A stretch of DNA of 47,790 nucleotides from a virus (IMGVR_UViG_3300045988_092571:1-47790); one strand, 5' to 3'; counted from the stretch's first letter, positions 1-47,790 are shown. Program-made: numbers and translations. Notes: generated by a model from the sequence alone, not told the origin.

Positions 1-119
1 AATAAGGTTGATTATAATTTCCAAACATACTTATTCTCCTTCTAATTGGTTATTTACACCTAAAGTATAACGAGGATAATTACTTCATTATTGATTGAAA
101 ATTGACCAAAAAAAAAAAG
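1..119. repeat. Terminal direct repeat, copy 1 (identical to 47672..47790); indicates a circularly closed or terminally redundant genome
   Basis: Base-by-base comparison: 1..119 (aataaggttg...ccaaaaaaaaaaag) equals 47672..47790, including the 11-A run. Bases 1..28 duplicate the 5' end of the CDS 47301..47699. Confidence 0.95.
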
Positions 120-2572: not shown

Positions 2573-4360
2573 TTAGGCTGTTCGTTTCCATATATAACAA
2601 GTTATGTATGGTTGCAAGTTATTATGAGGTTGGTCCCCGCCAGCATTGGACGTATTTGGTATAGCACCAACCCCATCAGTCCATAAATTTCCTGTACCAA
2701 TACCCTTGATGCCTTGATTTTCTTGATTAAACAAAGCACTACCACCTTGAAATCCATGTGGGTGTGATGCTAATTCTTGAACAGTCAATTTGTGTGTCTT
2801 TTCACCACCTGTTTTTTCAACTGTGTTAAATTCAGTTTGACTTGTATCAACACCAACAGGAACTCTACCAGCACCCCAAATTACCCAAGTTCCTCCAAAT
2901 AGTTGACTAGGATTTGTTGAGTCTGTGCTAAAATAAAGACTTCCTACAGGGTGTGCTAAATCAACATTTATCCTAACCTGTGAGTCTGAATATTCTAATA
3001 ATTTGATACCTTTATACCATACATCGTTTCTTCTTATTCTAAAGGTTGGTGTTCCTTCTGAAAGAGACTCAGAAAAAGTAATTCCATTTACATTTACCTT
3101 ATCTTTTAATATAACTTCAATATCATAACTGTTATCTGTTGAGAAGTTTTCGCCAATCAACAAATCAGTAATACTAAAGGTATTATTTAATATGACAGCC
3201 TCTTCTGTTATATCTGAAGTAGTCTCCCAAACAGAAGTTCCTTTTGCTTTATACCTTAGTTGAACAGTTAAAGTATTATTAGTTGCTCCAAAACTATCAT
3301 TAAAATAATTTCCCGTTAAGTTCAAATGGGCTTTACCTGATAATTCATTTTCACGTGTTACTGAAATATTTGTAACAGTTAATGGAACATATTCTACATA
3401 ATGTTCAAAGTCAACTTGTAACGTATCACTGCTAAGCCCACGACTATCTTTAACTGATGTATAAAGCTTATCACTATCAACTTTGGATATGCTGCCTGTT
3501 GATTGCGTTTCTTGAAGAGCCCCACTCACTTTAGACAAATAGTATTTAGAAATAGTTGAGTTGTGTTTTGCAGTACCTGTTATTGTGTAGTTAATATTAC
3601 TTACACCTTTTACAATACCATCAACATAACCTGTTAAACTTTGTGATATTATATCTGTTGTATAACCAAAGGAAACTGTAGGTTTAGCCTCATCACTATC
3701 AACATAAACTGTAAAAGGTGTAGTAGTTGTTCCAATTAAATCATTTCCAGAATATGTATAGCAATAGAATGTTCCTTGTCCTGACACATTGTTTGGAATT
3801 TGTGCATAGAAAGTCTCGGGAACTGTCCATTGGTAACTATTAGCTACATTTGTTGCAAACTCTTCAGATAAAGTACCAAAATCGTAACGAAGTTTATGTC
3901 TAAACGACGTAGAATTTTGTGAGATGTTAATCGTTGTTGTTTTTCCAATCGTTAAATTAGTTGGACTTATAATACTATCCGCTCTCGGTATAGTAGGTAA
4001 TGGGAAAGACCCACTTATATTAGCATCTCCTAAATTCCAACTTGTATCAGCACTTGCTGTATAAGAAGCTGTAGCTTTTCCTTCATTATTATGAGGAACT
4101 ATAACATCTAAGTAACCTATCAATGTGTTAGAATTAGGACCAATATTACTAAAAGACCCTACGTTTGTCCCATTAATGTAAACAGGTGCACTAACTCCTC
4201 CACCTGAATAATTTCCAACAGAACCTACATAAGCATAATATCTGATTGCACTAGCATTTCCTGGAGTAGATTGTGAGTTATCTTGGTATAAGTCTAAAAA
4301 GAAATGACTACCATTTACACCATTAAAATTTGCTCTTTGTAATAATTGCAATTTAATCAC
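2573..4360 (-). CDS. Tail fibre / receptor-binding protein with C-terminal phage tail-collar-like domain
   Basis: 595 aa. The C-terminus KTHKLTVQELASHPH...GGDQPHNNLQPYITCYIWKRTA matches the tail-collar pattern (H..H...G...HNN.QPY). Position is distal in the tail module. Confidence 0.7.
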   Translation of the reverse strand: MIKLQLLQRANFNGVNGSHFFLDLYQDNSQSTPGNASAIRYYAYVGSVGNYSGGGVSAPVYINGTNVGSFSNIGPNSNTLIGYLDVIVPHNNEGKATASYTASADTSWNLGDANISGSFPLPTIPRADSIISPTNLTIGKTTTINISQNSTSFRHKLRYDFGTLSEEFATNVANSYQWTVPETFYAQIPNNVSGQGTFYCYTYSGNDLIGTTTTPFTVYVDSDEAKPTVSFGYTTDIISQSLTGYVDGIVKGVSNINYTITGTAKHNSTISKYYLSKVSGALQETQSTGSISKVDSDKLYTSVKDSRGLSSDTLQVDFEHYVEYVPLTVTNISVTRENELSGKAHLNLTGNYFNDSFGATNNTLTVQLRYKAKGTSVWETTSDITEEAVILNNTFSITDLLIGENFSTDNSYDIEVILKDKVNVNGITFSESLSEGTPTFRIRRNDVWYKGIKLLEYSDSQVRINVDLAHPVGSLYFSTDSTNPSQLFGGTWVIWGAGRVPVGVDTSQTEFNTVEKTGGEKTHKLTVQELASHPHGFQGGSALFNQENQGIKGIGTGNLWTDGVGAIPNTSNAGGDQPHNNLQPYITCYIWKRTA

Positions 4361-5576
4361 CTACCCAATAAATATCCGTTGAAGGCTCACCTTCAAATTC
4401 ACCTTTAGTAAATAAAAGGTAGCCCAATTGTGTTTGATTTTCTATTTTATTTTCCAAATCTATTATTTTGTTATTTACGTCTTGTATAGCTTCATCTTGT
4501 TCTTCATTCTTAGCATCTATTTGTTTTGTTGGTGTATAGTTATTTTTTAAGTTTGTATCTAACGTATTATAAGATGTATTCAATTCATTAATATCTTCTA
4601 AAACATCGTCTACTGTCTGATTTATATTGGTTATTTGACTGGCATAATTAGTTGTATGTTTCCAGTCCATTAGAGAAAAATCTTCTCCATCTATCTTAGC
4701 AGTTTGACAAACATATAGTTCTTCTCCGTTTGTCCACAAGTCTCCTACATTATAAGGAGGAACAGGTTGTTCTGTGTATGTTTTAGTGCCTCCTGCCTTT
4801 GCATTTAAGGTACCATCACTTTCTATTTCTAGGTTATCTCCTACTTTAATACCACCTAAAGTGTCTTGACTAGCTATAGGTAAATCGTATGAACTACCTC
4901 CTGTTGCAGACAAAGTACCATCATCTTCAACATGAAGTCCCGTTCCTACTTTAACTCCACCTAATGTTGTTTCTGTAGCTGGTGGAAGAACATAAGAGCC
5001 TCCACCACCTCCAGTAGCATTTAAAGTACCATCTGGCTCAATTGTTAGATTGTCTCCTACTTTAATACCACCTAATGCTGTTTCAGAGGCTACAGGTAAC
5101 TCTAAATTGTCTATAGCATTATTTACGTATGTTGCATCAACAAAGTTTTCATCGTTTTCAAGCTGTGATACTTTTGTCGGTATTTCCGACTTATCTGCTT
5201 TATTATTAAGACTGCTCTTTATTTCAGTATCATCATAGTTTTCTAAAGAAGCAAGTTTTTCTTTCTCAGCATCTGTATAATCATTAGAAGATAAAACTTT
5301 TCCTTCTTCTTTATCAACTTTATTTTCTATCTGTGTTTCTAAATCAGATACTGTTGTATTAAATGTACTATTTTCTACTTTATTATTTATTTGAGTCTGC
5401 AATTCTTGAACTTGTTCTGCAACATTAGAGACGTCTGCTTTATCTTGTTGTAGTTCCAATATCAGTCTATAGTTGTCATTGACTCCTTGCTCTGTTACAT
5501 CATTGTTTGCATTTAAGTCACTACCATAGAGTACTTGCCCATCTTGATAATCTTTTTTTAGGCTTATATTTGCCAT
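4353..5576 (-). CDS. Tail fibre protein (coiled-coil N-terminus, triplicated fibre repeat)
   Basis: 407 aa with three LP.A..(E/D)TLGG(I/V)KVG..L.(I/V)E.DGTL.A.GG units. The N-terminal part has heptad-like Q/E/N-rich sequence. Confidence 0.7.
   Translation of the reverse strand: MANISLKKDYQDGQVLYGSDLNANNDVTEQGVNDNYRLILELQQDKADVSNVAEQVQELQTQINNKVENSTFNTTVSDLETQIENKVDKEEGKVLSSNDYTDAEKEKLASLENYDDTEIKSSLNNKADKSEIPTKVSQLENDENFVDATYVNNAIDNLELPVASETALGGIKVGDNLTIEPDGTLNATGGGGGSYVLPPATETTLGGVKVGTGLHVEDDGTLSATGGSSYDLPIASQDTLGGIKVGDNLEIESDGTLNAKAGGTKTYTEQPVPPYNVGDLWTNGEELYVCQTAKIDGEDFSLMDWKHTTNYASQITNINQTVDDVLEDINELNTSYNTLDTNLKNNYTPTKQIDAKNEEQDEAIQDVNNKIIDLENKIENQTQLGYLLFTKGEFEGEPSTDIYWVGD
4791..5099 (-). 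repeat. Three tandem in-frame ~30-34-aa fibre repeats inside CDS 4353..5576
   Basis: aa 160-262: ETALGGIKVGDNLTIEPDGTLNATGG / ETTLGGVKVGTGLHVEDDGTLSATGG / QDTLGGIKVGDNLEIESDGTLNAKAGG. Confidence 0.85.
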
Positions 5577-5577
5577 A

Positions 5578-13285: not shown

Positions 13286-13480
13286 TTAACTCTTTTTCTT
13301 GTTCAAATCTATATTTTTGTCTATATAATCCTTCTGATATTGAGGAACTCCTGCTAAAGAGTACCTTTTTTCATCATTTTTTGTGTTTTTTGACACAATT
13401 TTTTCAAATTTTTGAAAATTGTCGATGAAATAGACAAATTTTTCATAATTTTTTAAAAGAAATCTTAGTTTTTTCAACAT
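13286..13480 (-). CDS. Hypothetical small protein
   Basis: 64 aa. Overlaps the terminase stop. Lys-rich. Confidence 0.35.
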   Translation of the reverse strand: MLKKLRFLLKNYEKFVYFIDNFQKFEKIVSKNTKNDEKRYSLAGVPQYQKDYIDKNIDLNKKKS

Positions 13481-14874
13481 AATCTATAGCCTCCTGAGTG
13501 TCTTTTTCCTCTTCTTTCTCTAGCTGTTTCTTCCACAGACTCTTGGTACATATCCTTTAGCAAGGTTTTCATTGTACTTTCTCGCTGTTCTTTAGGTTTC
13601 TGGTTCATTGTTTTAAAGAAATCGGCATAACTTGCATAAGAAGTATGCTTCATATTCAAGTAGTCATAAGGAATGTCTTGGCAAATATAACGTAAGCAGT
13701 CCATTAAGTGATTATTCTTATCCAATGGCTTTTCTCCTAAGTTTTTATTCTTGTTTCGTTCCTCTTCTGTTGGATAACGATATTCACAGCCTTCCCATAT
13801 AGTGTTAGTCAAGCTTCTGAAAAACCTTACTTTTCCATTATACATCATATTTTTTACTTTTTGAATACCGTCCTCTAGTGCGTTGTTTGCTAACTTAAAC
13901 ACAATACCATGCTCAATCTGCATTTGTTGTTTATATGTTCTCGGTACAATCTGACTTCGTTTATTGGCAGACGGGTCAACTAATGGAGTATGTAACATTC
14001 CTGGAGCAATATCTTTTGTCATTTCGTAGAAAGCACTTGCTACTTGTGATGCAACTTTATTTTTCTGATAGTATTCTCTAAAAAAGTGAACAATTCCTGT
14101 TTCTGGGTCAATTGCTCCCATTAATATAGCAGCAGGGTCGTTAATTCCAGGGTCATGGGCTAAATAAACTTCCCAATTCTTCGGTATATCGAAGTCATCT
14201 TCTACCATATTTAAAATATTCGGATATACTGCACCTACTGCATACTCAATAATACAGTCAATATACAGTCTTGCTTCTTCTGGTGATAGAGACCTCTCTA
14301 CTGTCTCGACAAATCCAGGTGGTAAGTATGGATTATCTCTACTACTTGACAAAAATGCTTCAATTTCTGGGTTTGGTCTTTTGACACGGTCTTTATACAT
14401 GGCAACTGTATTCTGTATAGATGCACTACCATAAATTTTACTAGCTGTAAAAAGCAAATCTCTCAAATAACCATGAGACGGGTTAGATACTAACAGACCT
14501 ACATAATGAGAAACTCCATTAATGATGCCTGCTTTATTTCTTAGACGTCTAATACACTCTTTATAAATTTTCGGGTCTACACCGGATGCTTCTTCTATAT
14601 AGAATGCAGTAATATCCATAGAACGTATTTTTTCTTCGTCATCACTGGCAAGTCCTAAAATAGTGTGTCCATTTTTTAGAATTATCTCAATATCTTGTTT
14701 TGTATCTGTCCATTTCTCTACAAATTTTCGTGGCAAGTATTCATCAAATATTGGCATTATCGCCTTACTTAACTGCTTTAATGTCTGTGCAAACATTACT
14801 GTCTTTCCGTTCGGTACTGACAGGGCATGGTCTATAATCTCGTTTACTCCTGCACGGGACTTAGCTGAGCCCAT
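13474..14874 (-). CDS. terL: Terminase large subunit, exon 2
   Basis: Begins with the second half of the Walker A motif (MGSAKS). Walker-B-like AFYIEEASG. Nuclease-domain motifs LAHDPGINDPAAIL and DKNNHLMDCLRY. The frame is closed by TAA immediately upstream. Confidence 0.85.
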   Translation of the reverse strand: MGSAKSRAGVNEIIDHALSVPNGKTVMFAQTLKQLSKAIMPIFDEYLPRKFVEKWTDTKQDIEIILKNGHTILGLASDDEEKIRSMDITAFYIEEASGVDPKIYKECIRRLRNKAGIINGVSHYVGLLVSNPSHGYLRDLLFTASKIYGSASIQNTVAMYKDRVKRPNPEIEAFLSSSRDNPYLPPGFVETVERSLSPEEARLYIDCIIEYAVGAVYPNILNMVEDDFDIPKNWEVYLAHDPGINDPAAILMGAIDPETGIVHFFREYYQKNKVASQVASAFYEMTKDIAPGMLHTPLVDPSANKRSQIVPRTYKQQMQIEHGIVFKLANNALEDGIQKVKNMMYNGKVRFFRSLTNTIWEGCEYRYPTEEERNKNKNLGEKPLDKNNHLMDCLRYICQDIPYDYLNMKHTSYASYADFFKTMNQKPKEQRESTMKTLLKDMYQESVEETARERRGKRHSGGYRLC

Positions 14875-15607
14875 CAATTATGTTATCGTAAAGGCTCTTT
14901 ATCCTTTACTTCTGTAGTTTCTTTTCTTTATATCGACTCCATATTTTATCGTGGTTTCCTGCATACTCTAAGAACTCTTTACTAAATGTTCCCATTTTTA
15001 ATGCGTGTTCATAATTCTCACGATTTGTTACCCATTCTAAATTGGTTACTTTGTTGTTAGATTTATCACAATCTATGTGATTGACTTGAGGTAAGTTATT
15101 AGGGTTTGGTAAGAAATACTTAGCAACTAATCGGTGTACTTTGTATTTCTTTCTTCCTATTTCTACATAATAGTAACCTTTGTGGTCTTTTTGTGGTTTT
15201 ATACATCTTTTACTGAATGTACTGTAAAAGTTACCTTTATCAGAAATATAATAGTCTCCTTTTGTTTTAAGTTTACCTGCTTCATTAACAAGTTTCCAAT
15301 TTTCTTCTGAATTCATTTACATCACCTCACGTCCTAATATTACAGGTTATGTGGTGATGTTGTCAATATAAATTGTTATTTCTACAGTTCAGACTATATC
15401 TTCACCTTTCGGTGTCGGGCACTCGTGGACAGTTTATTGTTATCCGAACTCACTGTCTAGTCGTTGGACCCAATCTTAACATTGACACCTTTTCTATAAA
15501 TACCTTATAACGACTAAGATGTCAACGGATGCTAAGACCTTGGCTGCTGATTACCCACTTCTGGGCTTCCCAGCAATTCACCCGATTACGAGGCTATGGG
15601 CTATTTA
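14875..15607 (-). mobile_element. Group I intron (733 nt) carrying an HNH homing-endonuclease ORF, inserted in terL
   Basis: 5' splice site after U of GGAGGU (15608). Intron nt 8-18, CCCAU-A-GCCUC (15600..15590), can pair both with the exon 2 start AUGGG (P10) and with the exon 1 end GAGGU including U.G (P1). Intron ends in G (14875). Ligation is in frame and gives GGMGSAKS. GNRA hairpin CACC-GAAA-GGUG (15414..15403). Locally G+C-richer, helix-rich sequence. Confidence 0.8.
14906..15316 (-). CDS. HNH homing endonuclease (NUMOD4 + HNH_3-type), intron-encoded
   Basis: 136 aa. WKLV...YYISDKGNFYS (NUMOD4-like). HRLVAKYFLPNPNNLPQVNHIDCDKSNNKVTNLEWVTNRENYEH (HNH). RBS GAGGTGAT. Confidence 0.85.
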   Translation of the reverse strand: MNSEENWKLVNEAGKLKTKGDYYISDKGNFYSTFSKRCIKPQKDHKGYYYVEIGRKKYKVHRLVAKYFLPNPNNLPQVNHIDCDKSNNKVTNLEWVTNRENYEHALKMGTFSKEFLEYAGNHDKIWSRYKEKKLQK

Positions 15608-15811
15608 ACCTCCCAACATAATTTTTATCTTGGCACGACTTTTATGAAACTCTAACTGGTGAGGTAGGGGCACGTAGTGTATATATGCTGCTCCACACGC
15701 ATCACAATACCCGTACTGGTGCTTCCCATCTTTCTCGATTGTGATATGTCCACTACCACAGACGGGACACTTAAATATAAGTGTGTTTTCTGTCTCAGCT
15801 TCTTGTATCAC
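15608..15811 (-). CDS. terL: Terminase large subunit, exon 1 (N-terminal Zn-ribbon plus first half of Walker A)
   Basis: CPVCG...CDACG zinc ribbon, then LPHQLEFHKSRAKIKIMLGG, ending at the first two glycines of the P-loop. The in-frame TAA at 15605..15607 belongs to the intron. Confidence 0.8.
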
Positions 15812-35083: not shown

Positions 35084-35794
35084 ATGACGAAATATATCGC
35101 TAGTGTGAGTTTTGGTAAAGATAGTTTAGCGATGTTACTATTAATACTAGAGAAAAATAAACCATTAGATGAAGTTATTTTTTATGATACTGGTATGGAG
35201 TTTCAAGCGATTTATAATATCAGAGATAAAGTTGTTGAATTGTTAAAAGAAAAAGGTATTAAATATACAGAATTAAAACCTAAACTTCCTTTTGAATACG
35301 TTATGTTTGAAAAACCAGTAAAACATAGAAACGGTACAATTAGTAAAGGTTATTCATGGTGTGGAGGTAGATGTCGTTGGGGTACAACAGAAAAAAATAC
35401 TATAATTAAAAAATACTTAAAAGAAAATTATAACGATGATTATAAAGAATATATAGGTATTGCTTATGATGAACCTAATAGAATAAAAGATGATAATAAA
35501 AAGATATATTTACTTTATGATTTAAAATATACAGAAAAAGATTGTTTGAGATATTGTTATTCTAAAGGTTACTCGTGGGAAGAAGATGGTATAGATTTGT
35601 ATAGTGTTTTAGATAGAGTATCTTGTTGGTGTTGTGCTAATAAAAATTTAAAAGAATTAAGAGCATATTATAAATATTTACCTACGTATTGGAATAAGTT
35701 AAAAGAATTGCAAAGTAAAACAGAAAGACCTTTTAGAAACAATAAAGAAAGTATCTTTGATTTAGAAGAAAGATTTAAGAAAGAGGAGGATTAA
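35084..35794 (+). CDS. PAPS-reductase / PP-loop ATPase family protein
   Basis: PP-loop SFGKDSLAML. C-terminal Cys cluster (CGGRCRWG, CWCC). Confidence 0.7.
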   Translation: MTKYIASVSFGKDSLAMLLLILEKNKPLDEVIFYDTGMEFQAIYNIRDKVVELLKEKGIKYTELKPKLPFEYVMFEKPVKHRNGTISKGYSWCGGRCRWGTTEKNTIIKKYLKENYNDDYKEYIGIAYDEPNRIKDDNKKIYLLYDLKYTEKDCLRYCYSKGYSWEEDGIDLYSVLDRVSCWCCANKNLKELRAYYKYLPTYWNKLKELQSKTERPFRNNKESIFDLEERFKKEED

Positions 35795-38859: not shown

Positions 38860-39115
38860 TATAATGAATTACATATCCAGTATAGGTGGGCTTCCTATTA
38901 AACAAAATCAGTTAGGAATTTATGCTCAAGCAGGTGTCCCAGACTTAATTTGCTGCGTTAAGGGGCACTTTATCGGTATAGAGGTAAAACAATCAGGGAA
39001 GAAGCCAACACCTATACAGAAGGCATTTTTGGAGGCAATAATAAGGTGTGGTGGAATTGCTTTCTATGCTACAAGTGTTGAAGAAGTTAAAGATAAATTA
39101 AAAGAGCTAGTTTGA
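38834..39115 (+). CDS. VRR-NUC domain nuclease
   Basis: GVPDLICCVKGHFIGIEVKQSGKKPTPIQKAFL = PD...(D/E)xK core plus the Q..w motif. GTG start after GGAGG. Confidence 0.7.
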   Translation: MKEQNIQTNIMNYISSIGGLPIKQNQLGIYAQAGVPDLICCVKGHFIGIEVKQSGKKPTPIQKAFLEAIIRCGGIAFYATSVEEVKDKLKELV

Positions 39116-39133
39116 ATTTCTAGCTCTTTTTCT
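39101..39133. terminator. Bidirectional terminator at the convergence of the plus and minus blocks
   Basis: Perfect 10-bp stem AAAGAGCTAG/CTAGCTCTTT (39101..39110/39120..39129) followed by TTT on the plus strand. Overlaps the stops of both convergent CDSs. Confidence 0.7.
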
Positions 39134-42100
39134 TGTATTTACAAGATTATTAAGTCTTAGCCTACTGTTATTATTTAACTCACTGATTGTAGGAACATCT
39201 ATACCTTGACTCTTCAATTCTGAAATCATTTCCTGATACTTTTCTAGTTCTTGATAGACTCGGCTATTTGCAACACGTTCTGCATTTGTATTTTGTGCGA
39301 TAGAATTTAAAATTTCAGCCCACATTTCGCTATTGGAAATATCACCGTTAAATCTATCGTAAATGGCTTTTGCTTTATCAAACACATTAGTTGTTACTGT
39401 ATCAATACCTAGTGTATTTGCTAACGTTTCTACTGTGCTTCTGTTTAGTTCATTACCTGTGAATGTATCAACACCTGTTACTTGTTCAAATGGTGTTCTA
39501 ATTAATGGCGAAGTAGAAGAAACTACTCGACGTAACGGTTCTTCTGCAAACTCACCTAAATCAGATACAGGAAGATTTAATTTCAAGTAAATACGATTAC
39601 CTTCATCATCAGACCATGGCAGTGGTAATTGGAAGTTTTCTTTCTGATACTGATAATATTCGTTCTCATCTAAATCACTATAGATACTATTATAGCCTTT
39701 AATTAGCTTATTATATTTGTTTGCATTCTTCATTAGATTAGAAGCCTGGAATAACAAGTTCTGTTTCGTAAACGTATAAAATGGAATGATTTTCTTAACA
39801 ACGTTACGTTCAAAATCACTCATATTATTTGGGTCCATTAATGCAAATCTAACAGCTTCTATAGGGCTATTAAATCCTAAATTGCTAACAAATTTAGGGT
39901 GTTCATTAGCATATTTAAGAAGTGCCATTCTGTTTAGTGAGTCAATTGCACCATTTAAGTCACCATTCATTTGAACTAATCTACTAACAACACCTTTAGA
40001 ATTTCCAGCACCTTGTAAAACTTCCTCCAAGTCTTGTAACGTTGTACCTGCATTATTAAAACCACCCTGATAGAATTGTCTAATTAAATTGTAATCATCA
40101 AGTTCTGCTTTAGTTAGTGTTTCAAGTCCATTATTAGCCTTAGCAATGATATTGTCCATATTATTTAATAGCTTAGAAGCATCTTGGTAAAGTCCAGGTA
40201 TTTGTGAAGTAGGAACTCCACTTAAAGCTAAGTTTACTGCATTACCTGTAATGTTTCTAATTTGGAAACCAGGAGTTAAAACTTTAAATTTCTTAAAAGT
40301 ATTATTGAATGAGTTTACCATTTTTAGAATAGGACTCATCTGTCTACCATCATTGAAACCAACTTTAAATAAATTAGCTAAGTTTTTATCCATATAGACA
40401 ACCTTACCATCTAAAGAATTTACAAAGTCTTGAAGTGCTGTTGAGTTTTCTGGAAGAATACCTTTAATAGCATCAACTTGTTTAGCTATCTTACTTGCAT
40501 CAACCCTTGTAAAGTTGTAAGGAATTTGACCGTCTACTAAATCATCAGCTGTCTTTATTAAGTCTGTATCGTTCAACGTACCTGTTAAAAGTGCTTCATT
40601 ATAAAGTTTAGCACCTTTTGAAGTAGCTGTAGCATTATTAATAAAGTCCTCAATTCCTGCCATAGCATCTAAATTAAATAACTCTTTACCTTGTTGACTT
40701 TCCAATACATCTGTGGCTTTCTGCAAGTTTTCTATTCTTTTTATTTTAGCAGCATCAGCACTTTCATCAAGTGCACCTATTTGAAGTTCAAAATCACGTT
40801 GCTTTTGTTTAAGTCTGCTAATTTTATCAGAAAAAGTTTCTCTAATAAGAGGTTCACTTTCTCTTAGCTTAGCATAAGCAGCACTTTGTTTGACATATCG
40901 TTCAGTAAGATTATCTGACTTATCCATAGCTTTAACAGTATCATCTATAGTCTTAAGTGCAGCATCATCAATTGTTCCTGCTATTTTTGCAGAACTTACT
41001 CTAACGTTATTTTCTAATTTAGTTATACGTTGTTCTAGTTTGGAAGCCCTATTAAGTAATGAGTCTACTTGTCTTGGTTTCAAATTATCTGAGTTTTCAA
41101 TTTGTTTTATAAGGTCATTAAATTGCTTTTTAGAGTCTGCTAATTTAGTTGTATCATTTAAGAACTTATTAGAAAGTCTTGGGTCCTGTATTTTAGAGGC
41201 TTTGTCTATAATCTTATCAGAAAGTGCATCTCTTAATGTTTGTCTTGCAGTATCTGTCTTAGTTAAAGACTCTAGCTTCTTAGCTTGACTTGCACTAAGT
41301 TTAGCCAACTTTGCATCTCTTTTAGCCTCTGTTTCTGTTATTTGTCTAGATACATCACTTATCTGTTCTTCTAAAATAGTACGTTTATTTGCTGACAAGT
41401 TCTTTTTTAAGTTATCCACAGTTCTTCTATTTCTTGAAATAGCTTCAGTAATTGCTTCCTGTGCTCTTACATTTTCAACTTCTCCTGGGTCAATTCTTGT
41501 TCTTGAAGCAAACGAATTTGGATTAATTACATTACCTCTTCCAGATGCTATGTTTCTAGCTTCCTCACCTAAATCGCCTTGTGCACGTCTAACATATCCA
41601 GGACGATTAACAATATCTGAGAAGTCTGCACCTGTTTCTTCACGGATAATTCTAGATATATCCTGATAAGCTTGTTTAGTATCATCTACTAAAGACATAA
41701 ATTCACTATTTTGTCTTAGGTCATTTATTCTCTTAAGTTGTTCATCTGTATAGTTAAGACTTCTATTTAAGTTTAAATTTCTAAATGCTTCTTGAACGTT
41801 TGGATTGTTCTTAAAGTCATTAAGTAATTTGGACTTCTTTGTATTGATGACAAGTTCTGTACCACGGTCTCCCTCTCTAATTGTATATTTTATAGATGGA
41901 TATTGGTCTAAAACATTCTTAACTTGATTAATGGACTCGTCTGTTGCACTAAGTATATTTCTTTTGTTCTTAGAACTTATATTTCTAAGCCATCTTTCAC
42001 CATCAATTGCGGTGTCCATTTCACTTTCAATAACACGTGTGATGTCCTCAGAAACTTCTTTCATGACATCGTCTACATTTCTATTTGTCCTTTGTGCTAT

Positions 42101-43057
42101 GTCATCAGCATAGCTTCTTGCTTTGTTTACTAAATTATCAAGTACCTGATTAGAACGTGTTCTAGCAAAATCAGCAGCATAAGTACTTTCTCTAGCACGA
42201 TTGACCATATTGTTAGGAAGTGCTTTTGAAGCATCAAAAACACCTGTTAGAGACCGTTTTATATTATTGTAATCAGTCAATAAATTGGACCTCTGAACAT
42301 CACTTGTTACACTTCCTGCTTGTTGAATAGCTCTGTCTAATCTACTATTTCTAGCTATATCAACTGCCCCTAGACCTTTTTGAATTAGGTTATCTGCAAT
42401 ACCTGCTCCACCTTTAACAGCCTTTCCTGCTGCTCTAAATATAGCATCAGAAGGTGAAATAAATCTAATAGACCTAGCAGCATCAGAAGCAGTATCTACT
42501 GCATTAGCTGCTTTAGCTGCTTTAGAAGCAACTCTTGCTGCATCTGCAGCAGTATCGGCTGCATTAATACCAGCAGAAACAGCAGCACTTGCTCCTCCTG
42601 TAACTGGAATTAAAGCTAAATCTACAGGGTCCGCAAACACATCTAAACCAAAACCTAGTATGTCATCAAGACCTACATCCCCAATAATACCTTGGTCTGA
42701 CATTCCAGCATTTCTAAGTAATTGACCTCCTGATGTTGTCTTATTTCCTGTTAGACCTTCAAGTGCACCTTTCCCAACATCTCCACCCGTTTGGGCTGCA
42801 TCAATTGCACCAAACAAAGCTTGCTGTGGACGTCCTAAAATCTCAAATATATCAAATAGAATATTTTGGTCGTCTGGTAAATTAAATAGCTTCTCAAACC
42901 AGTCTCTTGTATCTGTGTCTACTCCTGAAGCTGTTAATCTCGTTTTAGCATTATTAACCTGTGATTGGAGCCTATTTGAAGAACTAGAAGAAGAGGAAGA
43001 CCGAAGTCTATTAGTAGTACTTGCTAGTCTTCCCGTTACTTTACTTTTCTTAGCCAT
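39107..43057 (-). CDS. Giant 1316-aa protein (putative virion-internal/ejection protein; function unknown)
   Basis: Poly-Ser tract, Gly/Ala-rich N-terminal region (GGASAAVSAGINAADTAADAARVASKAAKAANAV), long coiled-coil middle, distinct C-terminal domain. No enzymatic motif recognised. Confidence 0.4.
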   Translation of the reverse strand: MAKKSKVTGRLASTTNRLRSSSSSSSSNRLQSQVNNAKTRLTASGVDTDTRDWFEKLFNLPDDQNILFDIFEILGRPQQALFGAIDAAQTGGDVGKGALEGLTGNKTTSGGQLLRNAGMSDQGIIGDVGLDDILGFGLDVFADPVDLALIPVTGGASAAVSAGINAADTAADAARVASKAAKAANAVDTASDAARSIRFISPSDAIFRAAGKAVKGGAGIADNLIQKGLGAVDIARNSRLDRAIQQAGSVTSDVQRSNLLTDYNNIKRSLTGVFDASKALPNNMVNRARESTYAADFARTRSNQVLDNLVNKARSYADDIAQRTNRNVDDVMKEVSEDITRVIESEMDTAIDGERWLRNISSKNKRNILSATDESINQVKNVLDQYPSIKYTIREGDRGTELVINTKKSKLLNDFKNNPNVQEAFRNLNLNRSLNYTDEQLKRINDLRQNSEFMSLVDDTKQAYQDISRIIREETGADFSDIVNRPGYVRRAQGDLGEEARNIASGRGNVINPNSFASRTRIDPGEVENVRAQEAITEAISRNRRTVDNLKKNLSANKRTILEEQISDVSRQITETEAKRDAKLAKLSASQAKKLESLTKTDTARQTLRDALSDKIIDKASKIQDPRLSNKFLNDTTKLADSKKQFNDLIKQIENSDNLKPRQVDSLLNRASKLEQRITKLENNVRVSSAKIAGTIDDAALKTIDDTVKAMDKSDNLTERYVKQSAAYAKLRESEPLIRETFSDKISRLKQKQRDFELQIGALDESADAAKIKRIENLQKATDVLESQQGKELFNLDAMAGIEDFINNATATSKGAKLYNEALLTGTLNDTDLIKTADDLVDGQIPYNFTRVDASKIAKQVDAIKGILPENSTALQDFVNSLDGKVVYMDKNLANLFKVGFNDGRQMSPILKMVNSFNNTFKKFKVLTPGFQIRNITGNAVNLALSGVPTSQIPGLYQDASKLLNNMDNIIAKANNGLETLTKAELDDYNLIRQFYQGGFNNAGTTLQDLEEVLQGAGNSKGVVSRLVQMNGDLNGAIDSLNRMALLKYANEHPKFVSNLGFNSPIEAVRFALMDPNNMSDFERNVVKKIIPFYTFTKQNLLFQASNLMKNANKYNKLIKGYNSIYSDLDENEYYQYQKENFQLPLPWSDDEGNRIYLKLNLPVSDLGEFAEEPLRRVVSSTSPLIRTPFEQVTGVDTFTGNELNRSTVETLANTLGIDTVTTNVFDKAKAIYDRFNGDISNSEMWAEILNSIAQNTNAERVANSRVYQELEKYQEMISELKSQGIDVPTISELNNNSRLRLNNLVNTRKRARNSN

Positions 43058-43068
43058 AGAAACACCTC

Positions 43069-44145
43069 CTACTGATAGTTCTTATAGTAGTCTATCAAAT
43101 ATCCTAAGTTGGTTGCTGCTTGATTGTACAAAACGTTATCTAAGTTATATTGCTCTTGATATGCTGCAATTGTATCCATAGCTGCATCATAAATTTCATT
43201 CATCGTATTTTTGTCATTTCTATTAGTACGTTTTAATTGATTAGCTGCATCATTTACAATACTATTTAAAGCATTAATACCAGCATTTTGAGTAGCTGCT
43301 GCATTAGCTCTTTGTGATGCTAAGCTTGCTGCTAAACTTGCAGCTTGTTGTCTAGCCTCTTCTTGACGAACCCGTTCATTGTATTCTAACTGAGCAATTA
43401 AATTAGCGGTATTTGCATCAATATTTTGAACATTTAGATTATATTCATTTAAAATATCATTTAGTGACTTGTCTGTATCTTCTTGAGCTTCACGAAGTGC
43501 TGTTCTAAGTGCGTCCATAGCTTGTTGATTAGCATTTGCATTTTCACTAACTTCTCTACCTTGAGCAATCAAATTTTGCAATTGTGATAACTGTTGAAGA
43601 CCACTTCCACTAATACCTCGAGAAGCTGCGTCTATCATAGTTGTTCTATCTGCTTGATATCTTGCATCTTCTAAGTCTGCTCTTGTACTAAGATAATCCT
43701 GCCTTTGTTGTTGCTGTTGAAGTGCATTCTGCTCTTGAAAACGTTTAATAGAAGTTAGTAAGTCTTGTCTTTTAGATTGATACGTTTGATTGGCTGTATC
43801 TTTTTGTGCTTGTGCTGCTTGGTTATAAGCATTAATCATAGGTGTTAAATCAATAGGACGTGCAGCAGCTACAGCTTGATTATAAGCTGAACTAGCTCCT
43901 CCTAATTGATTATTTACAAGTGAATTTAAGTCTACACCCGAACCGACGGTCACTAATTTAGATGTATCAAAGCCAGAACTTGTATTTGTATTTGTAGTTG
44001 TAGGTCGTTGATTTCTATCTGCTGTTGGTCTAGGAAGATTATTCGATGCTCCAGGTTGATTTCCAATACTGGTCGATGTTGTAAATACAGGAGTTTTAGA
44101 TTTATTACTACTTCCACCAAAAAGAATATTCCACAAACTTGCCAT
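43069..44145 (-). CDS. Gln/Ala/Asn-rich coiled-coil protein (hypothetical)
   Basis: 358 aa. RBS AAGGAGG. Co-oriented with, and 11 nt upstream of, the 1316-aa gene. Confidence 0.5.
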   Translation of the reverse strand: MASLWNILFGGSSNKSKTPVFTTSTSIGNQPGASNNLPRPTADRNQRPTTTNTNTSSGFDTSKLVTVGSGVDLNSLVNNQLGGASSAYNQAVAAARPIDLTPMINAYNQAAQAQKDTANQTYQSKRQDLLTSIKRFQEQNALQQQQQRQDYLSTRADLEDARYQADRTTMIDAASRGISGSGLQQLSQLQNLIAQGREVSENANANQQAMDALRTALREAQEDTDKSLNDILNEYNLNVQNIDANTANLIAQLEYNERVRQEEARQQAASLAASLASQRANAAATQNAGINALNSIVNDAANQLKRTNRNDKNTMNEIYDAAMDTIAAYQEQYNLDNVLYNQAATNLGYLIDYYKNYQ

Positions 44146-44182
44146 ATTTATACCTCCTTATATAGTATATAAAATCATCTAA

Positions 44183-44211
44183 AGTATATCATAAATGTCT
44201 ATAAATGTAAA
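44183..44211 (-). promoter_or_regulatory. Sigma-A-type promoter for the 358-aa/1316-aa operon
   Basis: Minus strand: TTTACA (44211..44206), 17 nt, TATACT (44188..44183), preceded by TGa. Confidence 0.65.
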
Positions 44212-44304
44212 CAAAAGCACCATGGTTGAACCACAGTGCTAGTTTAGAACCCAGAATGTTCTAATGGAATATGTTGGATTGTAGATGTCAAGTAATGCAC
44301 CTAC
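44209..44304 (-). ncRNA. Candidate small RNA unit 3 (~95 nt), bounded by promoter and terminator
   Basis: Starts ~7 nt after the TATACT at 44316..44311. Internal hairpins GUAAU..AUUAC and UAGAAC..GUUCUA. Terminator stem AGCACUGUGG/CCAUGGUGCU (44240..44216) plus UUUUGUUU. No RBS-preceded ORF. Confidence 0.5.
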
Positions 44305-44310
44305 TATTAC

Positions 44311-44339
44311 AGTATATAATATTAAAAATTTTATGTCAA
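44311..44339 (-). promoter_or_regulatory. Sigma-A-type promoter of sRNA unit 3
   Basis: Minus strand: TTGACA (44339..44334), 17 nt, TATACT (44316..44311). Confidence 0.7.
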
Positions 44340-44512
44340 TAAAATAGCACCTAGAAGGTGCTCTGGAAAAAATAAATAAATAGTGAGAGACTTCATCCAA
44401 AAAACATAAATCTGTACTTGGCTTTGACATAAAAGTTAAAATAATTGGTTTTGAAGTAAAAGTTAACCTGAAAGGTAGTTGTGTGATTACAAAAACTATA
44501 GAAATCTCTCAC
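44338..44512 (-). ncRNA. Candidate structured RNA unit 2 (~175 nt), bounded by promoter and terminator
   Basis: The predicted TSS G (44512) opens a 12-bp helix: GUGAGAGAUUUC (44512..44501) pairs with GAAGUCUCUCAC (44394..44383), with one G.U. Terminator AGCACC-UUCUA-GGUGCU (44362..44346) plus AUUUUAUU. Internal duplicated UUAACUUUUA. Confidence 0.5.
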
Positions 44513-44518
44513 ATATTT

Positions 44519-44547
44519 AATATAACATATATCGAACACTTTTTCAA
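44519..44547 (-). promoter_or_regulatory. Sigma-A-type promoter of RNA unit 2
   Basis: Minus strand: TTGAAA (44547..44542), 17 nt, TATATT (44524..44519), preceded by TGt. Sits in a tandem 11-bp duplication ACTTTTTCAAT x2 (44538..44559). Confidence 0.65.
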
Positions 44548-44556
44548 TACTTTTTC

Positions 44557-44645
44557 AATAAAAAATGACTACGGAGCATTGAGTCATCTTTTATCACCAT
44601 AAAACTGGAAGTGTAAATGAAACACCAATTATAGGAATAACCTAC
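44557..44645 (-). ncRNA. Candidate small RNA unit 1 (~90 nt), bounded by promoter and terminator
   Basis: Starts ~7 nt after the TATACT at 44657..44652. Terminator ATGACT-11 nt-AGTCAT (44587..44565) plus UUUUUAUU. No RBS-preceded ORF. Confidence 0.45.
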
Positions 44646-44651
44646 ATCTAA

Positions 44652-44680
44652 AGTATAGCATAAAACAACTTAAAAATCAA
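44652..44680 (-). promoter_or_regulatory. Sigma-A-type promoter of sRNA unit 1
   Basis: Minus strand: TTGATT (44680..44675), 17 nt, TATACT (44657..44652), preceded by TGc. Begins 4 nt after the tRNA CCA end. Confidence 0.65.
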
Positions 44681-44683
44681 TAT

Positions 44684-44760
44684 TGGAGCACCATACCCGA
44701 ATTGCACGAGTGTCTATTTGATTTGCAGTCAAATCGGCTTCGCTTCTTGCCTAATGGTGC
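44684..44760 (-). tRNA. tRNA-Cys(GCA): tRNA-Cys(GCA)-like gene with encoded CCA and non-canonical D and T loops
   Basis: Minus strand: GCACCAT-TA-GGCAAGAAGCGAAGCC-GA-TTTGA-CTGCAAA-TCAAA-TAGAC-ACTCG-TGCAATT-CGGGT-ATGGTGC-T-CCA. Perfect 7-bp acceptor stem. 5-bp anticodon stem with loop CU-GCA-AA. 5-bp T stem. Discriminator U73 and an A13.A22 mismatch, as known for tRNA-Cys. The D loop lacks GG and the T loop is UGCAAUU instead of UUCRANY. Confidence 0.65.
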
Positions 44761-44787
44761 ATATTTAAGGGAATTACTCCCTTATAA

Positions 44788-45144
44788 TTATTTTACAATC
44801 CAAACATATTCTGCTTCTCTTTCCGTACAATCAAATGTATCATAGATATTACCATATTTTGAGCAAGTTATATGCCCTATCATAGTTATCAATAATACAT
44901 TATCTGGGTATAAACTAGAAATGTAGCCAACTGTTCCTTTTGTATAAGGCAATCTGTCATAACGTCTGTCTAAATAGTCTATAATAAACTCCCTGTCGTC
45001 CATCATAGTACCTTGAGCTTGTGCTATATCACTTAATTTTTCATATACATAATCCCAACTTTTACCAGTTGCACATGAAATAGCCCTTATAGTACAGTCT
45101 GAAATGTTTTTGCCCCTTACATTTGCATTATAATATTTATACAT
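44788..45144 (-). CDS. Hypothetical protein with papain-like Cys/His arrangement (possible cysteine peptidase fold)
   Basis: 118 aa. N-terminal NISDCTIRAIS motif, later MIGHITC and D residues. The family resemblance is from memory only. Confidence 0.35.
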   Translation of the reverse strand: MYKYYNANVRGKNISDCTIRAISCATGKSWDYVYEKLSDIAQAQGTMMDDREFIIDYLDRRYDRLPYTKGTVGYISSLYPDNVLLITMIGHITCSKYGNIYDTFDCTEREAEYVWIVK

Positions 45145-45659: not shown

Positions 45660-46118
45660 CTACGATTTCTTTGTAATTGAAATGTTTGCGTTTTGAATTA
45701 CTGGAACTTCTGTAACTGTTGTCGTTCCTGGTGTAGTAGCACCTGTTAAAATACTAGGCACTGCTTGTACTGTTAATGTAGTGTTACCATTACAACATAC
45801 ACGAAGTTTCTTGTCGAATGATACATTTACATAGTCCCCTGTTGTTGTGATTTGTGCAATTACTGTCGTTCCAGGTACTAATACACCGTCTTGATAAAGT
45901 CCTAAAGCGACTGCTCCTGCAACTGATGATGTAACATTAGCATTGAATGAAACTTCATATATTCCACCACACAATATTTTGTATAGAGGAGAACCTTCAT
46001 TATGTTGTAACCAATTACAACAATTAGCACTTCTCGTTCTTAAATCGTCAACACTAAATGATACTGGAGCAGAATTGCTAGTTAATGCTGTGATAGGCTC
46101 TAAAACACTTTGTATCAT
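45660..46118 (-). CDS. Hypothetical beta-rich protein with CC pairs (TNF/C1q- or BclA-C-terminal-like pattern)
   Basis: 152 aa. ...GGIYEVSFNANVTSS..GAVALGLYQDGVLVPGT... resembles jelly-roll C1q/BclA-CTD strands. Cys pairs NCC and VCC. Confidence 0.4.
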   Translation of the reverse strand: MIQSVLEPITALTSNSAPVSFSVDDLRTRSANCCNWLQHNEGSPLYKILCGGIYEVSFNANVTSSVAGAVALGLYQDGVLVPGTTVIAQITTTGDYVNVSFDKKLRVCCNGNTTLTVQAVPSILTGATTPGTTTVTEVPVIQNANISITKKS

Positions 46119-46133
46119 ATTATCAATCCTTTC

Positions 46134-46168
46134 TTATAAAAAATAAGAGATAGGGCTTGCCTATCTCT
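46134..46168 (-). terminator. Intrinsic terminator between the 262-aa and 152-aa genes
   Basis: 9-bp stem AGAGATAGG/CCTATCTCT (46146..46154/46160..46168) with a 5-nt loop, followed on the minus strand by TATTTTTTAT, only ~17 nt before the next start codon. Confidence 0.65.
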
Positions 46169-46172
46169 GTTT

Positions 46173-46188
46173 AGGACATATATGTCCT
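46173..46188. repeat. Perfect 16-bp palindrome AGGACATATATGTCCT
   Basis: Self-complementary, immediately upstream (in the minus sense) of the terminator hairpin. Confidence 0.8.
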
Positions 46189-46231
46189 TAGCAAGTCCCT
46201 GTAATTAGGTTAGTCTATTAGACCAATGCTA

Positions 46232-47020
46232 TTAAATTACTGTTCCATTACAACCGCACGTGCTATAGCAACAGTTCGGGTTTGGAACAACGTATGCTGG
46301 GCTTGGGCATGGTTTTAACTGATTAATCAAGTACGTATTTTGTGCTTCTTGACTTGCTCTTAAACGTAGAGCATTGATTTCATTTTGTTGTGCTGCAATT
46401 TGTGCGTTCTTATCTTCAATACGGTTAGCAAGAATTTCATCATGCAATGCACGATAATTTGCGTTCTGATTGTCGATGATGTCTCTAGTGTTGTTACATA
46501 ATGTTTGTTGAATAGCATTTGTATTCATAGCCATATTGTAATTAATTCCGTCGAGACCACGTTGTGTTTGGCAGCAGCAATCAGAAATTTGTTGACGAAT
46601 ATCACAGCAACAATTTGCTAACTGACTAGATAATCCTTGAACCCCTAAACGAGTTTCATAGCCATTTGTAGTGATTGCTTGATTAATACCACTGAAACCT
46701 TGGCATAGTGTCTGTTGCGTTGCTGCAAAACCATTTGTCATAGTGTTGTTTAGTGCAAAAGTGCTATCACAAATACCATTTGAAATCGTATCTAGTTTTC
46801 TATCAACCTGTGCGAAATCACTAGCTAAAACATATCCGTCTGCAACTCCACCAGAGTTTCCGCCGAAGCCACCGCCAAATCCGTTTCTTCCAAATCCAAA
46901 GATTAAGAATAGAATTATAATCCAAGCATAGTCATTACCCCAGCCATTGTTATATCTTCCATTACCAGCATTACCTGACAATACTGCCACATCTGCTGGA
47001 GAAAGAACACCTTCGTTCAT
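46232..47020 (-). CDS. Membrane-anchored Gly-rich, cysteine-cluster protein (hypothetical)
   Basis: 262 aa. TM segment YAWIIILFLIFGF, then GFGGGFGGNSGG. Two CCC triplets (NCCCDIRQQISDCCCQ). C-terminal PCPSP...NCCYSTCGCNG. Gln/Asn-rich coiled coil. Confidence 0.55.
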   Translation of the reverse strand: MNEGVLSPADVAVLSGNAGNGRYNNGWGNDYAWIIILFLIFGFGRNGFGGGFGGNSGGVADGYVLASDFAQVDRKLDTISNGICDSTFALNNTMTNGFAATQQTLCQGFSGINQAITTNGYETRLGVQGLSSQLANCCCDIRQQISDCCCQTQRGLDGINYNMAMNTNAIQQTLCNNTRDIIDNQNANYRALHDEILANRIEDKNAQIAAQQNEINALRLRASQEAQNTYLINQLKPCPSPAYVVPNPNCCYSTCGCNGTVI

Positions 47021-47073
47021 ATTGTTTCCTCCTTATAAATTATCTATATCAAGCTACCTAGGTTAGCTGATAC

Positions 47074-47298
47074 CTATTTAAAATTGTTCATAAACTCAGA
47101 AAATTCCTCGTCAAAATTTCTTCCTTTTTCTTTAAAAAGATTTCTAGCGAAATTTTCTAGTCCTTTTGTATCTCCTTTATTAGCCATATCTATTAGGTTT
47201 CCCATAACAGGATTATTAGAACTAATAGACTTTTTAATTAAATCTGGGATATTTCCTCCCTTACTTATAAATGTTTTTAAAGGTTCTAAATTATTCAT
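47074..47298 (-). CDS. Small helical hypothetical protein
   Basis: 74 aa. Overlaps the stop of the upstream gene. Confidence 0.45.
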   Translation of the reverse strand: MNNLEPLKTFISKGGNIPDLIKKSISSNNPVMGNLIDMANKGDTKGLENFARNLFKEKGRNFDEEFSEFMNNFK

Positions 47299-47300
47299 AA

Positions 47301-47699
47301 TTAATCTCCTTTAGCATTTAAAGTATCTGTGATACTTTTAAGGTTGTCTTTTAGTTTTTGAATGTCATCTTCAATACGTGACAAATCGTCACTTGTTAAA
47401 TACTTTGTAACATGACTTCCTTCTGTTGTAGGTTTATATACAACGGTTTTACTTGTTCCATCATTCTGTAGTTGTTTTGTAACAATGGCACTTCCATCAG
47501 TTAATGGAAAATAACTAATACTTCCATCTAAAGGAATATCCATTGCTCGAACTACATCAATACTGTCTACTGACTTTCCCAAAAGTCCTGCCGGTTTTGT
47601 GAAATTGTTCGTATTATATTGAGGATATTGTGGCTCCATAGGTTGTGTTCTCTGTATCTGTGGTTGCATATAATAAGGTTGATTATAATTTCCAAACAT
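47301..47699 (-). CDS. Hypothetical protein with Gln/Pro/Tyr-rich N-terminus
   Basis: 132 aa. MFGNYNQPYYMQPQIQRTQPMEPQYPQYN low-complexity head, a globular core (DIPLDGSISYFPLTDGSAIV) and a C-terminal coiled coil. RBS AAGGAGA. Its start lies in the terminal repeat. Confidence 0.55.
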   Translation of the reverse strand: MFGNYNQPYYMQPQIQRTQPMEPQYPQYNTNNFTKPAGLLGKSVDSIDVVRAMDIPLDGSISYFPLTDGSAIVTKQLQNDGTSKTVVYKPTTEGSHVTKYLTSDDLSRIEDDIQKLKDNLKSITDTLNAKGD

Positions 47700-47790
47700 A
47701 CTTATTCTCCTTCTAATTGGTTATTTACACCTAAAGTATAACGAGGATAATTACTTCATTATTGATTGAAAATTGACCAAAAAAAAAAAG
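47672..47790. repeat. Terminal direct repeat, copy 2 (identical to 1..119)
   Basis: Same comparison as copy 1. Confidence 0.95.

Follow-up and report, generated by a model that had tools for sequence, protein, structure and literature searches.

The stretch IMGVR_UViG_3300045988_092571:1-47790, referred to below as the window (the whole stretch of DNA that was analysed, 47,790 nucleotides (nt)), is a complete viral contig (ENA ERZ27260745 k119_156290) with a G+C content of 32% and two divergent arms. Its late arm, on the minus strand, carries in order the genes for an endolysin, a holin, proteins of 97, 132 and 74 amino acids (aa), a Cys-rich protein of 262 aa, proteins of 152, 171 and 118 aa, and finally a tRNA, which is the subject of this analysis. 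The only tRNA that ARAGORN calls in the window is a tRNA-Cys(gca), encoded on the minus strand at 44684..44760. An original prediction made from the sequence alone had described a 77-nt minus-strand cloverleaf with exactly these coordinates and had named it as the only tRNA that could be found in the genome; both statements are borne out by the ARAGORN call. It is considered very likely that a real, selected tRNA-Cys gene is present. Its elements are the following.

44684..44760, minus strand: tRNA-Cys(GCA) gene, 77 nt with encoded CCA and discriminator U73, based on ARAGORN, the Rfam tRNA model (44.7 bits) and compensatory changes.
44724..44726, minus strand: anticodon GCA in the standard loop CUGCAAA (A36-A37-A38), based on the sequence and on ARAGORN (anticodon at position 35).
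44740..44747, minus strand: D loop AGAAGCGA, numbered from the family alignment as A14 G15 A16 A18 (44744) G19 (44743) C20 G20a A21.
44700..44706, minus strand: T loop UGCAAUU, composed of U54 (44706), G55 (44705), C56 (44704), A57, A58, U59 and U60, which fits (UGHAA)UU.
44734..44735, minus strand: spacer between the D stem and the anticodon stem, G (44735) plus A (44734), read as an inserted G followed by A26 pairing with U44.

The gene is parsed as GCACCAU UA GGCA AGAAGCGA AGCC GA UUUGA CUGCAAA UCAAA UAGAC ACUCG UGCAAUU CGGGU AUGGUGC U CCA. In a local scan of this region alone, Rfam RF00005 is matched over the full model (1-71) with a score above the gathering value of 29 (E 2.7e-8). The perfect 7-bp acceptor stem, the encoded CCA, U73 and the loop CU-GCA-AA named in the original prediction can all be read in the sequence, as can the A13.A22 mismatch, the T loop UGCAAUU and the two nucleotides between the D and anticodon stems.

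Studies in E. coli assign recognition by cysteinyl-tRNA synthetase (CysRS) to U73, the anticodon G34-C35-A36, an A13.A22 mismatch and the 15:48 tertiary pair. The discriminator of the window tRNA is the U at 44687 (U73 is present in 41 of 42 distinct tRNA-Cys aligned here), the anticodon nucleotides lie at 44726..44724, and the A13.A22 mismatch is present and common in the same aligned set (n=42). The 15:48 pair is G15:C48, a standard Levitt pair, unlike the G15:G48 of E. coli, and CUGCAAA is the anticodon loop common in bacterial tRNA-Cys. Compared with bacterial tRNA-Cys of the E. coli/B. subtilis type, the window tRNA thus agrees in every feature examined except for the canonical elbow nucleotides: in place of G18-G19 and U54-U55-C56, it carries A18-G19 and the T loop UGCAAUU with G55. 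Further differences are an extra nucleotide between C25 and A26 and an anticodon stem that is very rich in A and U and contains a single G-C pair.

Homologues were collected as loci or contigs (L-numbers) fetched from viral, genome and metagenome collections by pattern scans and exact-protein look-ups. Close homologues of the window tRNA are found in L002/L098/L143, L004, L008/L136, L100, L121, L147 and L151, and identical copies in L092, L141, L146 and L148. Neither megablast nor blastn matched the region or the tRNA to any of 50,697 phage records. Among the six most distinct homologous sequences, 99.2% of the cells in the 21 pairs of the cloverleaf are paired. Double-sided compensatory changes affect six pairs, three in the acceptor stem (2:71, 5:68, 6:67), one in the D stem (11:24) and two in the T stem (49:65, 52:62); none of 500 shuffles reached the observed compensation, and slid registers fall to 18-45% paired. 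The anticodon arm is invariant across the family, save for one U.U mismatch in L100. In the context alignment, the tRNA is nearly invariant, with both flanks unalignable in most relatives. Since pairing is kept by compensation and the tRNA is conserved while its flanks diverge, selection for a tRNA gene is indicated beyond chance.

The junction between the D and anticodon stems can be drawn in two ways. ARAGORN shows one spacer nucleotide, an anticodon stem of 6 bp and a variable loop of 4 nt. The 26:44 apposition was drawn by the same program as a sixth pair without spacer in 82 of 341 distinct tRNAs, and the class with six pairs plus one spacer comprises 13 of the 341, mostly the window tRNA family. 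Relatives of the L091 type read AGGC-A-AGGGA...UCCCU-UAUAC, with A26 opposite U44. Covariation cannot decide on the 26:44 pair because it is invariant in the window family. The best reading of the sequences is that a single G (44735) has been inserted between C25 and A26 with A26:U44 retained, an addition that would be tolerated.

The original prediction had stated that the D loop lacks G18G19, and there is indeed no GG; homology, however, places A18-G19 in the loop, so G19 is kept. Within the window family the D loop follows the pattern A-G-N-A-G-Y-(N)-A, in which A and G at the fourth and fifth places never change, whereas the next two places are variable (C/U or absent at the sixth, G/U/A at the seventh). 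A D-loop CG had also been proposed to pair with G55-C56 as a compensatory swap. This pairing was rejected, as the proposed C and G partners vary or are absent in homologues; the covariation actually seen is G18:U55 to A18:G55, with G19:C56 unchanged.

This covariation was followed in the alignment of 42 distinct tRNA-Cys, which includes canonical sequences of related phages besides numerous G55 types taken from unrelated contigs. All 11 tRNA-Cys with U55 have G in the position-18 column, and 30 of the 31 with G55 have A, with G at position 19 throughout, L029 excepted. The comparison is a fair test, because the search pattern fixed the T loop and left the D loop free. As a control, 283 distinct, unselected non-Cys tRNAs lying by chance in the fetched loci were inspected. 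Those with G55-C56 (n=18, ten isotypes) lack GG and have AG instead in 16 cases, whereas those with U55-C56 have GG in 247 of 250 and lack it in 3 of 250 (Fisher p = 6.8e-21). Swaps of the 19:56 pair occur in the same arrays, G19:C56 being replaced by U:A (tRNA-His of L003), A:U (L029) or C:G (L130, L122). The A18/G55 switch takes place within a lineage, since L038 (A18/G55) and L050 (G18/U55) have their D and T stems in common. As judged from these alignments, the atypical loops are a coordinated, recurring variant with G19:C56 retained and not a loss.

In canonical tRNAs, residue 18 is intercalated between positions 4 and 5 of the T loop, where it bonds to residue 55, and G19:C56 forms the exposed outer face of the elbow (PMC4810234; PMC7912444). 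T-loops outside tRNA follow UGNRA with an intercalating base that is almost exclusively adenosine, and their best-performing consensus is (UGHAA)UU (bioRxiv 10.1101/2022.12.26.521914). The window loop UGCAA-UU fits this consensus exactly: U54 G55 C56 A57 A58, with U and A at loop positions 1 and 5 as for the reverse Hoogsteen pair of such loops, G at position 2 and a purine at position 4, is followed by the bulged U59 and U60, and A18 stands where the intercalating base is expected. It thereby resembles the T-loops of flavin mononucleotide (FMN) and cobalamin riboswitches, RNase P and ribosomal RNA; it differs from them in that the motif sits inside a tRNA, otherwise the place of UUCRA and an intercalating G18, and in that the third loop base still pairs with G19. 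The elbow is thus most likely built in the manner of riboswitches, with A18 inserted beside G55 and the G19:C56 face preserved, the three-dimensional step being inferred from this literature. As G55 and A18 replace U55 and G18, neither pseudouridine 55 nor Gm18 can be made. A described A18/G55 tRNA elbow was not found in the searchable open-access literature, a coverage that is incomplete, and tRNA compilations may list cases.

The absence of G18G19 and of T-Psi-C and the possibility of drawing a sixth anticodon-stem pair are shared with tRNAPyl and bovine mitochondrial tRNASer(UGA). In those tRNAs, a single nucleotide links the acceptor stem to the D stem, the D loop measures 5 nt and the variable loop 3 nt (PMC1851642). 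A compact architecture of this kind was rejected for the window tRNA, which has two nucleotides (UA) at that junction, an 8-nt D loop and a variable region of 4-5 nt, and keeps G19:C56.

Non-canonical elbows are also found in tRNA arrays of other elements. In L130 (metagenome contig Ga0335085_10008033, 8500..14700), as in L111 and L122, most array members deviate from the canonical elbow. The L130 array holds nine non-Cys tRNAs with G55-C56 T loops, mostly with an A-G D loop, and three tRNAs with U55-G56 and a G-C D loop, i.e. the 19:56 swap from G:C to C:G. This suggests that whole sets of elbow-variant tRNAs may reside on one element. L090 and L093, chromosomal-size contigs of Candidatus Obscuribacterales metagenome-assembled genomes (MAGs), carry at about 4000-8000 an array of 21 tRNA genes with a tRNA-Cys of the G55/A18 type, a second, canonical tRNA-Cys(GCA) and a tRNA with the anticodon ACA.

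The surroundings of the gene show which of its features are conserved at this position. The slot is bordered by the following features.

44788..45144, minus strand: gene of the 118-aa protein (phrog_3754), the last protein gene before the tRNA.
44766..44784, minus strand: hairpin AAGGGA-GUAAU-UCCCUU, not followed by a U-run, whose end lies 5 nt ahead of the tRNA 5' end.
44652..44680, minus strand: promoter-like TTGATT-17-TGcTATACT immediately 3' of the tRNA, where the next transcription unit probably begins.
44547..44596, minus strand: hairpin with U-run, the first terminator-like structure downstream of the tRNA, based on sequence, fold and a weak match to the SpF36 terminator-like Rfam family.

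Homologues of the 118-aa protein (43-79% identity) occur in 80 viral contigs, at least 11 of which have a tRNA-Cys(GCA) downstream of the gene, mostly within about 30 nt and in two cases with a tRNA-Gln in front; the tRNA-Cys at this slot is mostly canonical. Six genomes are 93-96% identical to the window, each with an identical 118-aa protein. Four of them carry the window-type tRNA, two with single loop substitutions. The other two (L149, L150) have instead a canonical 74-nt tRNA-Cys with a GG D loop and UUCAAAU as T loop, at the same start coordinate (3385..3458 in these contigs). The flanks are 100% identical to those of the window up to G1 and from C72-U73-CCA onward, so the exchange is restricted to the tRNA body (positions 2-71), and the canonical body is unrelated. 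Because siblings hold a canonical tRNA-Cys in exactly the same slot between identical flanks, the variant appears functionally interchangeable with a normal tRNA-Cys. This argues that the slot conserves a tRNA-Cys and not its unusual features, and that the variant would work as an ordinary tRNA-Cys.

Mobility is also apparent from more distant relatives. The tRNA of L092/L141 is identical in 77 of 77 positions, compared with only 77-78% in the adjacent 2.3-2.6 kb, and homology ends at the tRNA 3' end; in L002, L100 and L121, homology to the window is limited to the tRNA +/- 30 nt. The exchanged body in the siblings and the identical tRNA amid divergent flanks mark the gene as a mobile cassette. 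In being accessory, sporadic among relatives, located at an operon boundary and horizontally exchanged, it resembles other phage-encoded tRNAs, from which it differs by Cys as the only isotype, the exact replacement of the body between siblings and the variant elbow.

The roles of phage tRNAs are debated, with codon supply and counter-defence as the principal proposals (PMC10264068). Applied to the window, counter-defence would mean that the phage copy replaces host tRNA-Cys removed by a tRNA-targeting nuclease or by depletion, its altered elbow (no U55 or pseudouridine 55, no G18) and its junction insertion making it a poor substrate. The general hypothesis has been published for phage tRNAs (PMC10264068; also the PARIS papers), and the recurrence in one lineage of a sole tRNA of an isotype that is rarely phage-encoded is in line with it. 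The G55-type pattern is, moreover, very rare in cellular genomes (11 loci among 185,579 species genomes, roughly half of these loci on phage-size contigs or in mobile tRNA arrays) and recurs in phage contigs and arrays, which lends nuclease evasion some plausibility. The published evasion model, however, rests on changes of the anticodon loop (PMC10264068), and the loop CUGCAAA of the window tRNA is standard. The canonical tRNA-Cys of L149 and L150 shows that the variant features are dispensable, and even among phage tRNA-Cys the G55 type is a minority (9 loci versus at least 120 for the canonical control pattern). Since siblings carry a canonical tRNA-Cys at the same slot, the unusual features do not seem to be what is selected, and counter-defence is regarded as an unlikely explanation of the gene. 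More speculative, and quite improbable, is the extension that A18:G55 elbows and 19:56 swaps define an elbow-recoded class of tRNAs, mainly located on phages and mobile tRNA arrays, which would be selected for escaping host readers of the G18/pseudouridine-55 elbow while still working on the ribosome, and whose versions would be switched by body-for-body swaps. If such a class existed, the factors escaped might be T-loop-cleaving toxins, modification-dependent surveillance or TruB/TrmH-dependent checkpoints.

The hairpin in front of the tRNA is a common property of the slot. One that ends 4-6 nt before the tRNA is found in 14 of 16 tRNA-bearing relatives (L002, L004, L008, L011, L012, L017, L029, L038, L050, L060, L061, L092, L100 and L121); the stem sequences differ, the structure is kept through compensatory changes, and there is no U-run on the tRNA strand. 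Relatives without the tRNA have at the same place a hairpin with a U-run, i.e. a terminator, followed by a TGnTATAAT promoter, and the pre-tRNA hairpin probably derives from this terminator hairpin minus its U-run. Behind the tRNA, an intrinsic terminator is present in L012, L017, L029, L031, L050 and L092, and a strong promoter-like site in the window (44680-44652) and, in similar form, in L002, L004, L008 and L121. The hairpin before and the terminator or promoter-like site after the tRNA place it at the very end of the late operon. In about half of the tRNA-less loci, the intergenic gap is under 75 nt, too short for a tRNA, and in most of the 22 such loci examined the gene is followed at once by a plain terminator, with no covariance-model search for cryptic tRNAs made.

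From this arrangement it could be supposed that the tRNA shape serves as punctuation, recruiting RNase P to cut the late transcript after the hairpin and to create a stable mRNA 3' end, with decoding secondary or absent. The hairpin without a U-run 4-6 nt upstream, the normal terminator at this place in tRNA-less relatives and the position of the tRNA exactly at the operon boundary speak for such a function. GCA, U73, A13.A22 and the encoded CCA would be needless for processing, yet every tRNA of the slot is a tRNA-Cys (sometimes with a tRNA-Gln in front), the swapped sibling cassette is again a tRNA-Cys, and the anticodon arm is invariant in the family. As the main purpose of the gene, processing is hence judged very unlikely.

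The non-coding stretch of 540 nt that follows the tRNA (44146..44683, minus strand) shows an alternation of promoter-like (P) and terminator-like (T) sites, in the order P 44680-44652, T 44596-44547; P 44547-44519, T 44362-44346; P 44339-44311 (11/12 match), T 44240-44216; and P 44211-44183, followed by the gene of a 358-aa protein. The three P/T units fold better than shuffles (z -3.3, -4.3 and -4.2), match no Rfam family and may represent three small phage RNAs or leaders. Theta/HDV-like (hepatitis delta virus-like) ribozymes are known beside gut-phage tRNAs; none was detected here, with no Rfam hit at E <= 10 in 44100-45000. An attP or a remnant of an integration site was likewise considered and rejected: the tRNA is complete with its own sequence, lies inside the late region, and no integrase was found among the 56 open reading frames (ORFs) scanned against PHROGs.

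Two genes upstream in the same operon code for proteins rich in cysteine.

46232..47020, minus strand: 262-aa Cys-rich protein (phrog_16490) with 14 Cys and two CCC motifs, 1.5 kb upstream of the tRNA.
45660..46118, minus strand: 152-aa protein containing 5 Cys (CC motifs), for which a weak BclA C-terminal-like match was obtained.

Members of phrog_16490 have an N-terminal hydrophobic/Gly-rich segment and CCC motifs; some of the distant homologues carry the annotation fibre or spike protein. Across all relatives, the homologues (L010-L089) favour TGC over TGT roughly twice as often as their neighbouring genes do.

The original prediction had counted 14 Cys in the 262-aa protein, as found here, and had placed the tRNA directly after the Cys-cluster genes. 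The common late operon stands, although two genes lie in between, encoding the proteins of 171 aa (0 Cys) and 118 aa (4 Cys). Its first explanation, codon supply for Cys-rich late proteins, would in the strict form mean that the tRNA is present because the 262-aa and 152-aa proteins need it. Apart from the shared operon, which is circumstantial, the 262-aa homologue is present in 10 of 10 tRNA-Cys-bearing relatives with enough flank (in L100 the module is differently arranged). On the phage side of the codon usage, the 262-aa gene uses TGC for 8 of its 14 Cys codons, compared with 20% elsewhere (p = 0.005), and other NNY families show no significant bias. This preference is, however, the same in 262-aa families with or without a phage tRNA-Cys (39% versus 41%, p = 0.76). 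The tRNA-Cys is absent in 40 of 50 relatives with the 262-aa homologue (Fisher p = 0.33), and the Cys count of the homologue does not differ between tRNA-bearing and tRNA-less relatives (median 11 versus 10, p = 0.26). For the 152-aa homologue, a difference was obtained (median 4 versus 3, p = 0.005), a small effect in non-independent genomes that is discounted. L147 (Logan ERR4096532_1001), compared with window positions 46077..47790 and 1..71, has lost the genes for the 132-, 74- and 262-aa proteins together with a portion of the 152-aa gene, and retains the tRNA and the 118-aa gene; in L002, the tRNA is present with no Cys-rich module in the 3 kb upstream. Nor is the genome as a whole rich in cysteine, which accounts for 1.22% of 14,869 codons, 0.87% in the tRNA-bearing arm and 1.64% in the other. 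No significant association was thus obtained between the tRNA and the Cys-rich gene, whether in its presence, its Cys count or its TGC bias, and a dedicated coupling is rather improbable. The tRNA is read here as a general boost of a scarce tRNA that is possibly helpful to the Cys-rich proteins.

Taken together, the gene is probably a real and functional phage tRNA-Cys. That it is a functional elongator supplementing the tRNA-Cys pool, with an isofunctional elbow variant, is given an even chance of being the whole explanation. By its position, the tRNA closes the late operon, preceded by the lysis genes, the Cys-rich module and the 118-aa gene, and lies between the presumably terminator-derived hairpin and the next promoter. 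It would arise by read-through and be excised by RNase P and 3' processing, the RNase P cut leaving the upstream mRNA with a protective 3' hairpin. Host CysRS would then charge it via U73, G34-C35-A36 and the A13.A22/G15:C48 core, elements that are all present, and the product would add to, or insure, the small tRNA-Cys pool of the cell during infection. In the folded molecule, A18 would replace G18 as the base inserted into the T loop, in step with G55 for U55 as seen in the covariation, with the outer G19:C56 pair kept. The gene would move as a cassette among related phages, with canonical and variant tRNA-Cys bodies being swapped.

Several observations weigh against this account. The low Cys content of the phage offers little reason for a supply function, and the absence of the tRNA from most relatives with the Cys-rich module would make its benefit conditional. 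The RNAfold z-score of the tRNA (-1.7) is unremarkable, and in the minimum free energy structure the AU-rich anticodon arm is displaced by a hairpin, GAUUUG-ACUG-CAAAUC (44720..44735, minus strand), which buries the anticodon and is made possible by the inserted G at the D/anticodon junction. A gathering scan of the whole window with Rfam and fast filters did not list the tRNA at 44684..44760, which indicates a sequence divergent enough for a standard pipeline to lose. Along with an Rfam score that is low for a tRNA and the U.U mismatch in the anticodon stem of L100, the missed call and the competing fold would also be expected of a decaying relic, i.e. an acquired tRNA-Cys with damaging changes in the D loop, the T loop and the junction. 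Decay is scarcely credible in view of six compensatory double changes at 99.2% pairing, of D- and T-loop changes that are coordinated and recur across many lineages and isotypes, and of a tRNA far better conserved than its flanks.

The remaining gene content characterizes the carrier of this tRNA. Matches to PHROG and Pfam families include a large terminase, a portal, a major head protein, tail proteins, an M23 endolysin and a holin, as well as a family-A DNA polymerase, a primase-helicase, a helicase, RecE/Erf, SSB, a PAPS-reductase-like protein and a DNA methyltransferase. With no integrase or repressor among the 56 ORFs scanned against PHROGs, the window is probably a virulent, tailed phage of roughly 47.8 kb. 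The nearest cultured relatives are Paenibacillus podophages with about 26% portal identity, so that there is no annotated close relative. Related contigs bear IMG/VR metagenome identifiers, and faecal samples of humans and animals are the source of the Cys-rich protein's annotated relatives. A host could not be assigned from MAG labels, as these disagree (Gastranaerophilales, Bacilli) and are attached to phage-size contigs.

Further features of the genome lie apart from the tRNA slot. A group I intron at 15373..15653 on the minus strand (Rfam RF00028, 60.7 bits) adjoins the ORF of a 136-aa HNH endonuclease (14906..15316, minus strand), and the 467-aa ORF just downstream (13474..14877, minus strand) is matched by large-terminase profiles in their C-terminal part only; an intron with a homing endonuclease therefore seems to interrupt the terminase gene. 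The gene of the PAPS-reductase-like protein (35084..35794, plus strand; 236 aa, 7 Cys, phrog_424) lies in the early arm, close to that of a DNA methyltransferase. After the tRNA region follow the genes of two Cys-free proteins of 1316 aa (39107..43057, minus strand) and 358 aa (43069..44145, minus strand) that match no Pfam or PHROG family; the tRNA-side end of the 358-aa gene encodes a low-complexity sequence rich in Ser, Thr and Asn.

The gene itself is ordinary, and the covariation of the elbow and the exact cassette swap are the parts that a specialist might follow up. The elbow would provide a clean natural example that the near-universal contact between G18 and pseudouridine 55 can be replaced by A18/G55, with a riboswitch-type T-loop inside a tRNA. 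It affects how such genes are scored by tRNA finders and covariance filters, as illustrated by the filtered Rfam scan, as well as the modifications that are possible. The swap between siblings indicates that tRNA genes move as precise cassettes with cysteine specificity retained. A gut and rumen phage lineage that repeatedly keeps tRNA-Cys as its only tRNA would thus be a tractable case in which to weigh supply against counter-defence.

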